Shown: positions 25,222 to 31,934 of the stretch, piece after piece
Numbering within the stretch: the first letter of the stretch is position 1
Layout: the number at the start of each line of letters is the position of its first letter
Virus record (IMG/VR): IMGVR_UViG_3300027983_002389
Source: a virus
Taxonomy: Duplodnaviria > Caudoviricetes
DNA length: 64,000 nt
Direction: 5' to 3' (one strand)
Position numbers and translations under genes: made by a program
Notes under the pieces: generated by a model
Databases searched by the model: none
Told to the model about the DNA's origin: nothing
What the model saw: the letters and a program-made list of their open reading frames with translations, nothing else

Positions 25222-26334
25222 ATGAACCGTCAAGAATTGCTCAATGGCATTATTGCCCAATTAGATTTGGTTGTCTCCGAAAGTGACATTCGGGTATTGG
25301 CAAATCAGTTATGGATTGATGCTGGTTCGCCTCTTGGTGATGGCGAGTCTTTCTGGTTGCTCGCAGAGAATCAACTACTTGTTTCCAAACGTGAACAAAC
25401 TGCCAAGCGAATTCTCACTCAAGCGTTGCTTCCCGCCATTCAAGAATCTGCTGCCTCAATTCAAGATGAGGCGCAAAAATATACACAAAATGCCATTGGT
25501 GTTTTGCAAAAGGAACTTTTGGAAAACCAGCAATTGGTTTTGCCAGAAGGTGTTCGTTTTCATAAACGAGTTGGCAAGATCGACTATCTTGTCATCGAAC
25601 AGCAGCCTATGGTTCGCACTGTATTGGTCGATACCAGTTACCATAATGGAAAGATTGGTGAATCTCGATATCCTGATGCCAGTTCACAAGGGGCGAAAGA
25701 GTTTCACATTGCTTTACCTTATGTGATTTATCAGATTACGTTATCTGATTATCAATTGGCGAAATTCTACATTGCTTTTCGCACAGAGCCGCTGAAGACC
25801 CTGAAGGACAAACTGAGTTTATGTGTTATGCCCAACTCTCATGAAGAAGGTTCTGTGTGTTGTTCTTTTTCAAAACATAATCACGCCAACATCGTTGATG
25901 CTGTTCGGCACATCATTGGATTTTATTGGCAGTCACAATATCGCTATTGTCTTCATCACCGATTCCCCGACGACCCAGCATTCAAAACCTGGGATGCCTG
26001 GGAAAAAGCAAGTAGGGAAAATCCTTTGTTCATTTTGAATTTGAAGTGGCCCGAATTGGAATATACATTGGCTAAATTTTTAGGGGATGCCGCCAAAGAA
26101 CAGCCGCCAGCGCCACCAGCAGGCTTTCAGGATTTATCCTCTAAGTTTATTCAAGCAGCTTCGGATATTTTGACCTGCAAGGAAATTCTAAAGCCGGTGC
26201 CGCCATCGTTCGTCATCGACTATGACCGGCGTCATGACGAACGATGGCTGCGTGATGACGATGACGATGACGATGACGATGAAGATGAAGATGAAGATGA
26301 AGATGAAGATGAAGATGAAGATGAAGATATTTAG
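25222..26334 (+). CDS. prokaryotic E2 family D-like protein with N-terminal DUF2934-like motif and poly-acidic tail
   Basis: IRVLANQLWIDAGSP.G....FWLLAE; IEQQP..RT, ALPYV, PNSHEEGSVCC, FYWQSQY. Confidence 0.7.
   Translation: MNRQELLNGIIAQLDLVVSESDIRVLANQLWIDAGSPLGDGESFWLLAENQLLVSKREQTAKRILTQALLPAIQESAASIQDEAQKYTQNAIGVLQKELLENQQLVLPEGVRFHKRVGKIDYLVIEQQPMVRTVLVDTSYHNGKIGESRYPDASSQGAKEFHIALPYVIYQITLSDYQLAKFYIAFRTEPLKTLKDKLSLCVMPNSHEEGSVCCSFSKHNHANIVDAVRHIIGFYWQSQYRYCLHHRFPDDPAFKTWDAWEKASRENPLFILNLKWPELEYTLAKFLGDAAKEQPPAPPAGFQDLSSKFIQAASDILTCKEILKPVPPSFVIDYDRRHDERWLRDDDDDDDDDEDEDEDEDEDEDEDEDI
26253..26328 (+). repeat. (GAY)n/(GATGAA)n coding microsatellite
   Basis: encodes a D/E tract of about 25 residues. 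Confidence 0.9.
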
Positions 26335-26339
26335 TCTGC

Positions 26340-26368
26340 TTTACAATCGGACATATGCAGGGTATAAT
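26340..26368 (+). promoter_or_regulatory. promoter TTTACA-N17-TATAAT
   Basis: motif match upstream of sigma gene. Confidence 0.7.
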
Positions 26369-26376
26369 CTGGCATT

Positions 26377-27039
26377 ATGACCATGCTTATTGAACTAACA
26401 ACAGCCGACGATTTGCCCAAGGTGGTTAGCAGGGACGCTATTGATCCGGCCAAATACATTTTTTTGGTCGAAGCAATCTCACATAAATTTCGCAAAAAGT
26501 TTCGTGGCGACTTCGAGCAAATTGAGGATACCGAGCAATATTCCATTGCCTCTATGGAACTTGTAAAGGCTGCTGCTGGGTATGATCCTGAAGTGGGTGA
26601 AGATTTCGCCCGATACGCATTTCGTGCCATGAGGAATGGCATTATTGAAGCCATTCGTCATCAGAATCGTCAAAAACGAACTGCTGAATTTTCTAAATTG
26701 ACTGATCTTGAATGGCAAGAACTTCCAGAAAAAGAACCAGTTTTATCGAATGATATTCCCCCCGATGTATATCGGACCCTGATGGTGAATCACCCTGAAG
26801 ACACTGACCTAGATCGTGCTGATAAGGCACTTTTGACAGAAATTTACATTCAGGGCAAAAAGATTCCATTCATTGCGGAAAAATACGGAATCACCAGAAT
26901 GACGGTCTACAACCGTCTTCGTCGCATCATTGGAAAAATTCGTCAGCGTCATGGCGACCTGATTGAGTCACATGGGGGAATGCTCGATGAATGTCATGAA
27001 AGAGAGCCTTGTTGTCTTCACCGAAGGGGCGAGGGTTAA
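26377..27039 (+). CDS. sigma-70 family factor
   Basis: ELVKAAAGYDP...FARYAFRAMRNGI region 2; IAEKYGITRMTVYN HTH. Confidence 0.8.
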   Translation: MTMLIELTTADDLPKVVSRDAIDPAKYIFLVEAISHKFRKKFRGDFEQIEDTEQYSIASMELVKAAAGYDPEVGEDFARYAFRAMRNGIIEAIRHQNRQKRTAEFSKLTDLEWQELPEKEPVLSNDIPPDVYRTLMVNHPEDTDLDRADKALLTEIYIQGKKIPFIAEKYGITRMTVYNRLRRIIGKIRQRHGDLIESHGGMLDECHEREPCCLHRRGEG

Positions 27040-27493
27040 TTTCAAGGTCTACGGCTATTTGGTTCCGATATTTGCAGGTTTGCTTGATGGTGAACCACAA
27101 ATCTTTGGAGTCGCTTGGGAAGACGCCGCTCAAAAAGACGCCTTTGCTTTGAAAGTTCGTGACTGGATCGCTACTGATCGTCTCAAGGAATATATCATGG
27201 TGGTCGAAGCGTGGACCGCCAATACCTCTTGGAGAGATCAAGCCAAAGTTCTACAATGGCTTGAAACTCACGGGAGTTTGCAAAACTGGCCCGACCGTAG
27301 CGAAGTAGTTATGGTTATATATTGCTCACCTACTGAAGAAATTCAGTATACAGCAGACATTATTCGTGGTAGAATCCCTGTACCAATAATCGGGGAATGG
27401 AAAATCAGCCATCGGCAAGTGAAATTCAACCTCGAAGATTTTACCACACGATTCCAAGGCTTGTTCCTTAAAAGCAAAGCGGGGCAAAACTAA
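26987..27493 (+). CDS. hypothetical protein
   Basis: ORF; TAATG coupling to next gene. Confidence 0.65.
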   Translation: MNVMKESLVVFTEGARVNFKVYGYLVPIFAGLLDGEPQIFGVAWEDAAQKDAFALKVRDWIATDRLKEYIMVVEAWTANTSWRDQAKVLQWLETHGSLQNWPDRSEVVMVIYCSPTEEIQYTADIIRGRIPVPIIGEWKISHRQVKFNLEDFTTRFQGLFLKSKAGQN

Positions 27494-30637: not shown

Positions 30638-30727
30638 GTCGAACCAAATCGACTTTTCGCTCTCTAGTTCATTAGTTCATTAGTTCATTAGTGAAGTCTC
30701 AAAAATCTTTGTGAAGGGAATAGCCTC

Positions 30728-31498
30728 ATGGCACAAAAGAAGGCGGCAAAGGACGAATCACCCGTTGCCAAGAAGCCGCTCAAGATCAAGGTGATTGGAA
30801 CAGGCGGCATCGGTCTTTGCCTGCTCCCTTCGCTGTGTCGATACCTCAACTATAACGGTGAGAAATATCCATCCGTTGAAGTGAGTTTGATCGACGGCGA
30901 CTCGTTCGAGGAAAAGAACCGGGAACGACAAGAGTTCGTCGAAACGGGACCGAAGGCTTCCATTACTGCCGCCGAATATCGGGGTAAATTCCCACGACTG
31001 ATGTTTTGGGACCACCCGGTATATGTTGCCGACCACAACATCATTCAGTTGATTCGGGAGAACGATATTGTTCTTCTCTGTGTGGATAACCACAAGACTC
31101 GAAAGCTGATTAGCGACCGAGCCGAAGAACTGAAGAATGTCACCATCATCAGTGGCGGCAACGATTGGACTGATGGAAATGTGTTGGTTCATATTCGCCG
31201 GAATGAGTCAAACTTGACGCCGCCTTTGGCAAGCAAGTTTCACCCGGAGATTTTGAATCCAACCGACGAGAACCCCGCTGACGTGGAGCAAAAAGCAGAA
31301 GGTTGTGCAGAATTGGCCGTCTCTGCTCCGCAACTGTTGATTACAAACAATTACATTGCCGCCAATATGCTGGCTGCATTGTACAACCTGATCGACGAAG
31401 GACGGTACGAGAAGGTTCTCGCCGCTCCGCACAATTTCGCAGAGGTTTATTGTGATCTCTCTGTGATGAAGGCCATCCCACGGGAACGCAGGGTATAA
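30728..31498 (+). CDS. ThiF/E1-like adenylyltransferase
   Basis: GTGGIG, DGDSFEEKNRERQ, CVDN..TR, candidate catalytic Cys GCAE, QL..TN. Confidence 0.9.
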   Translation: MAQKKAAKDESPVAKKPLKIKVIGTGGIGLCLLPSLCRYLNYNGEKYPSVEVSLIDGDSFEEKNRERQEFVETGPKASITAAEYRGKFPRLMFWDHPVYVADHNIIQLIRENDIVLLCVDNHKTRKLISDRAEELKNVTIISGGNDWTDGNVLVHIRRNESNLTPPLASKFHPEILNPTDENPADVEQKAEGCAELAVSAPQLLITNNYIAANMLAALYNLIDEGRYEKVLAAPHNFAEVYCDLSVMKAIPRERRV

Positions 31499-31519
31499 CT
31501 TCCTTTCGTTCTCACGTTC

Positions 31520-31556
31520 TCAAACAAACAAACAAACAAACAAACAAACAAACAAA
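31520..31556 (+). repeat. (CAAA)n microsatellite
   Basis: about 9 perfect units upstream of the Ubl RBS. Confidence 0.9.
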
Positions 31557-31595
31557 ACCGAAAACTTTTTTCAACCGTGACAGGAGTATTTAGCA

Positions 31596-31934
31596 ATGGC
31601 TCAAGAACAGAAAAAGCCGGGTGGTGGTTTTTCCAACAAGAAGGCGTCTAGCGAGACGGTCCTGCCACAAGGCCAGACTAGCGCCCCAAGCGCTCAGGAT
31701 GCTTTGGCGAAGTTGGACGCAGCCGTGAAGGTTATTCACGGTGCTAATGATGGTTCGTTCAACTTGGCTGGTTCCAAGGTTACGACCGTTCGGGCATCTT
31801 TGGTTGACGCCTTCAACATTCCCGGTGACGCTCTCGCCTTCGTCAACGGCGAACAAGTTGATGCCAACTACACACTCCAGAGCAATGATACTTTGGAATT
31901 TGTCAAACAAGCGGGAGTAAAAGGGATCAAATAA
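31596..31934 (+). CDS. ubiquitin-like (beta-grasp) protein
   Basis: AFVNGEQV....TLQSNDTLEFVKQAGVKG-IK; AGGAG RBS; follows E1. Confidence 0.85.
   Translation: MAQEQKKPGGGFSNKKASSETVLPQGQTSAPSAQDALAKLDAAVKVIHGANDGSFNLAGSKVTTVRASLVDAFNIPGDALAFVNGEQVDANYTLQSNDTLEFVKQAGVKGIK

Follow-up and report, generated by a model that had tools for sequence, protein, structure and literature searches.

Does a very large phage carry its own enzymes for putting a ubiquitin-like protein (Ubl) onto other proteins and for taking it off again? The question is raised by a locus of eight genes at positions 25222–31934 of a 64,000-nucleotide stretch of DNA (hereafter the window, numbered from its first letter), which belongs to the IMG/VR virus record IMGVR_UViG_3300027983_002389 (Duplodnaviria; Caudoviricetes) and was found in freshwater and estuary metagenomes. 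A previous reading, made from the sequence alone (hereafter the sequence-only reading), had described the locus as a complete conjugation system with three E2-like paralogues, a sigma factor, a hypothetical protein, a JAB peptidase, a ThiF-type E1 and a Ubl. The open reading frames (ORFs) of all eight genes lie where that reading had placed them, on the plus strand (Table 1). In our judgement the locus is probably a phage-encoded Ubl-conjugation cassette of the bacterial type that combines E2_D, JAB, a minimal E1 and Ubl (operon type 6d), working by the mechanism proposed below.

The three E2-like proteins share an invariant cysteine

The sequence-only reading had grouped the three E2-like proteins, here called E2a, E2b and E2c, as paralogues on the basis of common motifs. 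Pairwise BLASTP comparison showed that the relationship is statistically real, with E-values of 2e-14 (E2a and E2b), 9e-14 (E2a and E2c) and 5e-8 (E2b and E2c) at sequence identities of 22–25%. We then examined a core alignment of 43 sequences that covers all three orthologue groups and is numbered here according to E2b. The residues P85, E103, R109, P123, C171, W195 and W240 are invariant across this alignment. The motifs that had been claimed are thus both present and conserved, as E103 and R109 belong to (I/V)E(Q/E)xPxxR, P123 to LPY and C171 to VC, and W195 and W240 are the tryptophans.

The invariant cysteine is part of a shared motif, LP(N/H)-x6-7-VC, in which an asparagine or a histidine precedes it by 7–8 residues. 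The asparagine is found in all 29 E2b and all four E2a orthologues, and in three of the nine E2c orthologues. The spacing resembles that of the canonical E2 active site, HPN-x7-C, with leucine instead of histidine; the equivalence of the Asn and the Cys to the canonical residues was judged by spacing and topology, without superposition.

The Pfam family Prok-E2_D (PF14460; gathering cut-off, 25 bits) is matched by 21 of the 29 E2b orthologues at E ≤ 0.01 (best, 8e-9), and distant members of the same profile family exceed the cut-off (32.7, 27.3 and 27.1 bits). Because the orthologues and distant family members match Pfam while the copies in the window score low, we place the window E2s in a putative divergent branch of the Prok-E2_D family, one that is not recognized from single proteins. 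E2a and E2c match the profile of the 43-sequence core with E-values of 1.1e-51 and 5.9e-54, and a search of the window with the profile found just three E2-family ORFs. A sequence search of the PDB with the E2 profile gave no match at E ≤ 10.

Outside the core, the proteins carry helical extensions that diverge between the paralogues, yet each is conserved among its own orthologues. E2a has a DUF2934-like helix at its N-terminus (5.5e-5) and terminates with 27 consecutive Asp/Glu residues (RDDDDDDDDDEDEDEDEDEDEDEDEDI). E2b has a helical N-terminal extension and a long, conserved C-terminal coiled-coil helix, in which K327, E328, Y334, E336, L337 and W338 are invariant among the orthologues. 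The invariance of these six residues argues for a conserved binding surface on the E2b helix. As a separate observation, the acidic run of E2a could be a nucleic-acid mimic or a binder of basic proteins.

The E2b core is predicted to have a UBC-like fold

We used AlphaFold2 to model E2b as the representative E2; E2a and E2c were placed through homology. The full-length E2b model had a predicted local distance difference test score (pLDDT) of 71.6. Foldseek returned no matches to it, and VIA-align returned an overwhelming number of matches between coiled coils and the C-terminal helix. Because this coiled coil dominated the structural search, the core was modelled separately. The model of the core (pLDDT 91.4; predicted template-modelling score 0.89) consists of a beta-meander, followed by a long loop bearing the cysteine and then by helices.

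When the E2b core was compared with 48,161 chains by VIA-align, UBC E2s took ranks 1–15. The best match, 1yf9_C, had a Z of 5.7 and a root-mean-square deviation of 4.8 Å over 123 aligned residues, and all eight chains with Z ≥ 5 were E2s. Lower in the list were bacterial BubCD (9eav_D; Z 4.8) and CdnG-E2 (8hsb_B; Z 4.3) and, after them, UEV and RWD domains. The match list is specific in spite of its modest Z values, and we regard the modelled fold of the E2b core as UBC-like. The sequence-only reading would have lost its basis if the E2-like proteins lacked a UBC fold; for the E2b core, on which this was tested, the fold is of that kind. Prediction of a complex between E1 and the E2b core gave a score of 0.02 against a mark of 0.32, and counts neither for nor against an interaction.

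E1, JAB peptidase and Ubl

The putative E1 matches ThiF (PF00899) with 48.4 bits (8.9e-13), above the cut-off of 28.1. It carries the motifs GTGGIG (G24xGGxG29), DGD...NRERQ and CVDNH; G24xGGxG29 and the residues D56/D58, N64/R67/Q68 and D120, together with the loop cysteine Cys193, are invariant in nine relatives, one of which is encoded on a contig that is not phage-like. By comparison with MoeB and ThiF, the motif residues are presumed to serve in nucleotide binding and as the Mg/Arg finger. The protein is a bare adenylation domain, without a rhodanese domain, a Cys domain or a UFD. The best NCBIfam model was PRTRC_ThiF (6.7e-15; 55.1 bits against a cut-off of 144.75), with ThiF and MoeB as runners-up. 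The earlier proposal of a ThiF/E1 with a candidate catalytic cysteine is therefore well founded, both in the Pfam score and in the invariance of Cys193.

The peptidase reaches the cut-off of Prok-JAB (PF14464; 25.5 bits against 25) and has the full JAMM motif, HSHCDFSAYHSGTD (H-x-H-x7-S-x2-D; residues 161–174, window positions 30185–30226), part of which, HSH..S..D, the sequence-only reading had recognized. The putative active site can be written as E108...H161-S-H163-x7-S171-x2-D174, and the HSH...S..D residues and the upstream glutamate (in KSEAYVTL) are invariant in eight orthologues. PRTRC_A was the best NCBIfam model (6.9e-8; 32.3 bits against a cut-off of 101.8). Because this match spans residues 37–210, the protein appears to include an N-terminal JAB-N-like domain.

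The Ubl consists of a poorly conserved N-terminal tail of ~43 residues, rich in Lys, Gly and Ser, a beta-grasp domain (residues 44–110) and the two-residue extension IK. Its domain ends in ...LEFVKQAGVKG, and the pattern E-F-x4-G-x-K-G (with G107-x-K109-G110) is invariant in 11 relatives. Seven of these 11 stop exactly at Gly110, and four carry unrelated tails of 1–5 residues, namely IK (window), N, KILPI and SQ. Since the invariant glycine is trailed by short, unrelated tails in part of the relatives, the Ubl looks like a precursor that is trimmed to its terminal glycine, the JAB encoded beside it being the obvious candidate enzyme. If the Ubl is conjugated, its invariant Lys-Gly end should leave a single-Gly tryptic remnant on the modified lysine, offering a direct proteomic handle.

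An Atlas model of Ubl residues 44–112 matched clusters with template-modelling (TM) scores of 0.72–0.95 overall, including those of ThiS (0.93), Ub-RnfH (0.80), MoaD/ThiS-SAMP2 (0.76) and ubiquitin/Rad60-SLD (0.72); the nearest Atlas clusters are mostly viral. Pfam matches to TGS were obtained for eight of the 11 relatives and to ThiS for four (best, 3e-5). The window Ubl itself scored just under the Pfam cut-offs, and a PDB sequence search with the Ubl profile gave chance-level rows only. Thus, the beta-grasp features and structure, the TGS and ThiS matches and the invariant C-terminal glycine with its short variable tails agree with the assignment as Ubl. Taken together, the identities that had been assigned to E1, E2, JAB and Ubl are all supported by independent tests (Pfam, invariant sites and structure).

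Conservation of the block and expansion of the E2 genes

E2b has 57 close cluster representatives, many of them on contigs of 226–673 kb; the window's own protein occurs on a contig of 462,616 bp. The block of ligase, (E2a), sigma factor, hypothetical protein, E2b, E2c, JAB, ThiF and Ubl genes is syntenic in relatives on contigs of 100–670 kb, and the synteny holds for E2b identities from 87% down to 37%. Most relatives retain the sigma factor inside the cassette. The hypothetical protein is always encoded between the sigma factor and E2b in the relatives and has a conserved end, ...TRFQGLFxxxKAGxN; in predicted fold, it is similar to the lambda Ea47-like proteins of phages (Atlas TM 0.72 to a cluster bearing PF26900).

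A sister record, whose E2b is 87% identical to that of the window, proved to be informative. Listed in IMG/VR as a virus, it is 340 kb long and ~69% complete by the CheckV estimate, and its terminase large subunit is recognized by PHROGs (phrog_5989; 1.3e-27), which bears out the phage origin that the sequence-only reading had assumed. Phage_capsid, Phage_sheath_1 and Terminase_6C of Pfam were not found in these 340 kb, and Terminase_6N reached just 16.8 bits. The record contains seven E2-family ORFs, three in the cassette and four dispersed ones (L019–L022, at ~108.0, 230.9, 180.6 and 186.9 kb, respectively). The dispersed E2s are 200–257 amino acids (aa) long, with E-values of 1e-14 to 1e-20, and all four retain the Cys as well as the QPPxxR and FW motifs; Pfam gave zero matches for them. 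Judged by position, their counterparts should fall outside the window in the window's own genome.

Against these seven E2s, the sister record has one ThiF, one Prok-JAB and one Ubl. Because it combines four extra dispersed E2s with a single E1, JAB and Ubl, the gene complement points to a layout in which one E1 serves many E2s. The expanded E2 set that had been proposed therefore holds with three members in the window, and the expansion is larger than claimed in the sister genome.

Related phages differ in their number of E2s, with one to three encoded in the cassette and as many as seven in one genome. E2a occurs in the window, in the related loci L003 and L005 and in the most distant locus, L014, and was undetected in L002, L012 and L013. 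Pfam gave zero matches for the neighbouring 270/271-aa and 196-aa proteins in L002 and L014. One relative (the contig of P0041) has a single E2 adjacent in the block. On the same contig, the Ubl gene is directly followed by a gene for a 117-aa protein that contains the C-terminal domain of the RNA polymerase alpha subunit (alpha-CTD; PF03118) and then by a short, 195-aa Prok-E2_D gene; the alpha-CTD gene hints at another link to transcription.

In a phylogenetic tree, the E2s were separated into three orthologue groups: E2a (L003, L005 and L014; 97/95), E2b (stem 98/93) and E2c (86/84). We drew nothing from the positions of L024 and L025 (cut on the wrong short domain), the four dispersed copies and gp214 of a Bacillus phage described below, all of which sit on very long branches. 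Since the orthologues of E2a, E2b and E2c form separate groups in the tree, the E2 triplication is older than the divergence of these phages.

To describe the wider family, we used profile searches. A word-indexed homologue search with the E2 core profile gave phage-type relatives only, and the farther ones were obtained by an exhaustive search, which found 3,535 representatives at E ≤ 1e-3, 1,620 at E ≤ 1e-10 and 226 at E ≤ 1e-30. Among the top matches listed, the proteins range from ~136 to 790 aa. Eight of ten sampled members of the wider family match Prok-E2_D, three of them over the cut-off. Three sampled contexts each contain a single long E2_D gene, JAB and ThiF, and then an ORF of 65–94 aa; these small ORFs align with the window Ubl and end in ...KG, one of them with an SQ tail. 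Because the sampled contexts share the order E2_D-JAB-ThiF-Ubl, the phage block can be regarded as an elaboration of a widespread four-gene unit.

Turning to cultured phages, blastn found no counterpart of the 7-kb region in 50,697 phage records, nor did tblastn searches of phages with the E2b core and the Ubl domain return a match; relatives in cultured phages surfaced only via ThiF and the profiles. The window ThiF finds relatives in the Bacillus jumbo phages vB_BceM_WH1, Edson and KLEB27-3 (26% identity; 3e-15). In vB_BceM_WH1, gp214 matches the E2 profile (3.4e-8), gp215 has the JAB motif (HSH...SGTD) and gp216 is the ThiF protein. The gene product gp211 (LC597490.1, 178788–179687), annotated as 'virion structural protein', consists of five head-to-tail Prok_Ub units of 57 aa (PF14454; 3.4e-27). 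Each unit ends in ...VIEFKVQAGTKG (EFKVQAGTKG), which is close to the ...EFVKQAGVKG end of the window Ubl. Homologues of gp211 are found in Edson (96% identical) and KLEB27-3 (50%). From its repeats, gp211 looks like a polyubiquitin-like precursor.

Gene organization and neighbouring genes

The features of the region are collected in Table 1. Three near-identical promoter-like sites suggest three transcription units, ligase–E2a, sigma factor–hypothetical–E2b–E2c and JAB–E1–Ubl. Stop and start codons overlap as TAATG at two junctions, hypothetical/E2b and E2b/E2c. As the sequence-only reading had stated, no E3 is visible: among the neighbouring and flanking genes scanned, we found no RING, HECT or other recognizable E3.

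Table 1. Positions of the cassette genes, their sub-features and neighbouring features in the window
Feature	Position	Strand	Size and remarks
Calcineurin-like metallophosphoesterase gene	20882–21820		Flanking region
Promoter-like site before ligase gene	22884–22912		TTTACA-N17-TA(T/C)AAT type
NAD-dependent DNA ligase	23028–25148		Upstream of cassette; phrog_3869, 1.4e-107
E2a	25222–26334	+	370 aa; Prok-E2_D-like paralogue
E2a, DUF2934-like N-terminal helix	~25279–25377		
E2a, UBC-like core	25522–26103		
E2a, candidate catalytic Cys213	25858–25860		
E2a, Asp/Glu run	26251–26331		
Promoter-like site before sigma gene	26340–26368	+	TTTACA-N17-TATAAT, 11/12; consensus match only
Sigma-70/ECF-family sigma factor	26377–27039	+	220 aa; Sigma70_r2, 1.8e-6; phrog_351, 8.9e-13; TIGR02937, 1.1e-15 (above cut-off)
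Conserved hypothetical protein	26987–27493	+	168–176 aa; ORF opens at 26963; start overlaps 3′ end of sigma gene
E2b	27493–28641	+	382 aa; core, residues 78–275; LPN-type motif, N163; Cys171 at 28003–28005
E2c	28641–29696	+	351 aa; Prok-E2_D-like paralogue; candidate Cys204 at 29250–29252
Promoter-like site before JAB gene	29669–29697	+	TTTACA-N17-TATAAT, 11/12, with TG; consensus match only
JAB/JAMM metallopeptidase	29750–30637	+	ORF opens with TTG at 29705; ATG at 29750 preceded by AGGAG
Minimal E1 (ThiF/MoeB-type adenylation domain)	30728–31498	+	256 aa; loop Cys193 at 31304–31306
Ubl precursor	31596–31934	+	112 aa
479-aa protein directly 3′ of Ubl	32018–33457		LEM-3-like GIY-YIG N-terminus, weak (1.7e-5, below cut-off)
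Calcineurin-like metallophosphoesterase gene	34152–34838		Flanking region

The remainder of the 479-aa protein encoded after the Ubl is long, of low complexity and helical, and the gene does not keep its position in distant relatives. In relatives, too, the cassette is flanked by genes similar to the two for calcineurin-like metallophosphoesterases. At a distance from the cassette, the window has an amidoligase-like gene (11400–12464; phrog_2443, 1.8e-20), and the distant locus L014 has Amidoligase_2 upstream of its cassette. Amidoligases have been proposed as peptide-tagging enzymes, and the phage may carry a second protein-modification chemistry of this kind.

Proposed mechanism and alternative explanations

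Every step of the mechanism that we propose is inferred from homology. JAB would cut IK off the Ubl precursor and expose the invariant C-terminal Gly110. The minimal ThiF-type E1 would adenylate Gly110 with ATP, and it may hold the Ubl on the loop Cys193. The Ubl would then be transferred as a thioester to the invariant cysteine of E2a, E2b or E2c. With no E3 visible, each E2 would pass the Ubl straight to lysines of its own target set, the choice of targets being made by its own helical N- and C-terminal extensions, and JAB would also remove the Ubl from the targets. That one E1 is combined with many E2s, that the three orthologue groups have long been retained and that the extensions have conserved surfaces are all in keeping with a division of labour among the E2s.

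The embedded sigma factor, the TAATG-coupled hypothetical gene, the alpha-CTD-like gene in one relative and the sigma-70-like promoter matches are weak and circumstantial evidence, from which it seems most likely that the early or middle phase of infection is when the cassette acts, its targets being proteins of the host or the phage and possibly the transcription machinery. The mechanism can be extended to a hierarchical viral system, in which a single E1, a single Ubl and a single deconjugase would be shared by three to seven E2s. These would act as E2/E3 hybrids with private helical extensions and would place several distinct marks on the machinery of the host or the phage, perhaps that of transcription. 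We put this extension forward only tentatively and consider it doubtful; if true, it would parallel the eukaryotic logic of one E1 and many E2s.

Several of our results weigh against the assignment as a conjugation cassette or parts of it. On Prok-E2_D, the window E2b scores 15.4 bits (E 0.016), below the Pfam cut-off, and E2a and E2c have no Prok-E2_D or UBC match in Pfam by themselves. The structural matches of the E2b core to E2s are modest (Z 4–6). A Foldseek search of this core against the PDB, a check that the sequence-only reading had proposed, returned nothing significant (none at E ≤ 0.001), the favourable part of its outcome being that the UBC E2s UbcH7, Ubc12, Cdc34 and UbcH5 recur in the weak rows. 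In six of the nine E2c orthologues, His replaces the Asn of LPN, so the chemistry of E2c may differ, and the 43-sequence core alignment contains no invariant or near-invariant His, the downstream His of type 6d being absent. The E1 has neither the Cys domain nor the UFD, the parts with which canonical E1s recruit E2s. The total count of promoter-like sites in the region is not above that of shuffled sequence, which weakens the argument on timing. As far as we found, the literature reports no biochemical step for cassettes of the 6d/PRTRC type.

These points bear on what the E2-like proteins do. They could be adaptors or scaffolds of the UEV/RWD type, or substrates, conjugation being carried out by E1 only, as for Urm1, the archaeal SAMPs and Thermus TtuB, with the E2 copies and coiled coils only binding partners. 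A bare adenylation domain without an E2-recruiting UFD is what such an arrangement would use, the non-catalytic UEV, RWD and FANCL folds match the E2b core at similar Z, long helical extensions dominate the E2 proteins, and E2c has His for the LPN Asn. Against this stands the cysteine, which all 43 of the aligned sequences and all four dispersed copies retain, together with the Asn 7–8 residues upstream of it, which never varies in E2a and E2b. Loss of the cysteine is typical of UBC-fold domains without catalytic activity, and it is described for the RWD-like bacterial domains (Iyer et al., PMC1779556). The genes E2-JAB-E1-Ubl also form a constant unit of four on the other contigs inspected, and we consider an adaptor role unlikely. 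Nor does the Ubl seem to be a mere sulfur carrier, thiocarboxylated by the ThiF-like enzyme for phage tRNA thiolation or a cofactor, for example, and only matured by JAB. This explanation would account for ThiS and TGS being the Pfam families that the Ubl matches, and for the MoeB/ThiF size of the E1 with ThiF and MoeB as its runner-up NCBIfam models. The E1 has no rhodanese domain, however, and neither a rhodanese (PF00581) nor a PP-loop ATPase of the TtuA/Ncs6 type (PF01171) was found in the 340-kb sister record, at its ~69% completeness. UBC-fold proteins with a Cys dominate the cassette, although a sulfur relay has no need of them, and the best models of E1 and JAB are those of PRTRC and not ThiF/MoeB. 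A sulfur relay is thus, in our view, quite improbable.

Two other explanations concern the purpose of the cassette. The same chemistry might have an anti-immune role, stripping or hijacking host Ubl marks (of the Bil, CBASS Cap2/Cap3 or host 6d type) or tagging defence proteins. The cassette is phage-borne, the nearest Atlas clusters of its Ubl are mostly viral, and the copy number of its E2s varies in the way typical of arms-race genes; antiphage defence is the function of the bacterial Ubl systems tested so far (PMC10097602 and PMC10557695). None of the eight proteins matches the defence models of PADLOC-DB 2.0 (Bil, CBASS and others), however, the best being E1-E2 at E 0.038 for ThiF and the rest at chance level, so that there is no sign of a known host system being mimicked. 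The deep synteny with housekeeping-type phage genes (ligase and sigma factor) also fits a core role in infection better than an accessory one, and we give counter-defence a small chance of being the right explanation. It is very improbable that the cassette maintains the element, as suggested for canonical PRTRC of plasmids, integrative and conjugative elements (ICEs) and some temperate phages, by partition or inheritance of a plasmid-like prophage state. PRTRC_A and PRTRC_ThiF are indeed the nearest named families, and PRTRC has been noted in temperate Burkholderia phages with a partition role suggested (PMC13366799); that role is itself a suggestion only (PMC13366799), and the scores of 32 and 55 bits are far under the PRTRC cut-offs of 102 and 145 bits, respectively. 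The proteins have no matches to PRTRC B–F, and Pfam found no ParB domain in the genes scanned, ~17.9–35.3 kb of the window.

Comparison with known systems

The nearest known kind of system is operon type 6d, which includes PRTRC. Type 6d was defined by Iyer, Burroughs and Aravind (2006; PMC1779556) as a combination of Ubl, JAB-N/JAB, an E1-like, an E2-like and an alpha-helical protein; its E2s have an absolutely conserved His downstream of the Cys and lack the His of canonical HPN (PMC1779556). The phage cassette is similar to it in the small Ubl with a conserved C-terminal Gly, in the JAB with an extra N-terminal domain beside a rhodanese-less E1, and in the E2-like protein, which has a conserved Cys but not the His of canonical HPN. 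It differs in being phage-borne, in having three E2s in the cassette (up to seven per genome) with long helical extensions, in the sigma factor and Ea47-like protein inside the block, and in the ~43-residue N-terminal tail of the Ubl; it also has no recognized counterpart of the alpha-helical protein and no conserved downstream His. We take the type 6d E2 family to be that of Pfam Prok-E2_D.

With PRTRC (NCBIfam TIGR03735–03742), the cassette shares the best named models for JAB (PRTRC_A, 6.9e-8) and E1 (PRTRC_ThiF, 6.7e-15). The local gene order of PRTRC, E2-JAB-ThiF, is the same as in the phage cassette; the Ubl gene lies 3′ of E1 in the phage and before E2 in PRTRC. Unlike in PRTRC, both scores are far under the curated cut-offs, no models other than A and ThiF (B, C, D, E or F) match the E2s, the Ubl or the hypothetical protein, and there is no ParB nearby. 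The comparison with PRTRC made by the sequence-only reading hence stands as one of kinship and not of membership. PRTRC is carried by plasmids, ICEs and temperate Burkholderia/Ralstonia phages; according to PMC13366799, it has been noted in temperate Burkholderia phages, is otherwise unrecorded in phages and is unstudied in function.

The Bacillus jumbo phages resemble the window in having adjoining E2_D-like, JAB and ThiF genes and in the end of the Ubl. They differ in that the Ubl is a five-unit polyprotein encoded three genes upstream of gp214, in that the stretch examined has a single E2, and in the low identity of their proteins to those of the window. As a cultured system, they make the question of the cassette testable at the bench now. 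Two broad surveys of jumbo phages (PMC7824862 and PMC13282480) do not mention Ubl systems, and we found no description of E2_D expansions in huge phages in the literature.

The host defence systems Bil (BilABCD), Bub and CBASS Cap2/Cap3 likewise unite a Ubl or target C-terminus, E1, E2 and a JAB deconjugase in one operon, and BubCD and CdnG-E2 are among the structural matches of the window E2b core. In contrast to them, the window E1 is a bare adenylation domain that is not fused to E2, and the cassette is carried by a virus, whereas those systems defend the host. To our knowledge, bacterial Ubl conjugation has been shown experimentally only for such host antiphage systems (CBASS Cap2/3, Bil and Bub).

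The 6d/PRTRC type was predicted in 2006. Here, a very large uncultured freshwater phage is predicted to have a complete gene set for putting on and taking off a Ubl tag, including a family of several E2s on one E1, which is normally missing from prokaryotic cassettes. If the cassette is active, protein tagging would join ADP-ribosylation, phosphorylation and acetylation as a chemistry of phage takeover, and the cassette would offer a compact system for substrate choice by E2s without E3s. Compared with the systems known so far, the new points are the three-to-seven-fold expansion of E2s on one E1, the fixed insertion of the sigma factor and Ea47-like genes, and the precursor-type tails of the Ubl.

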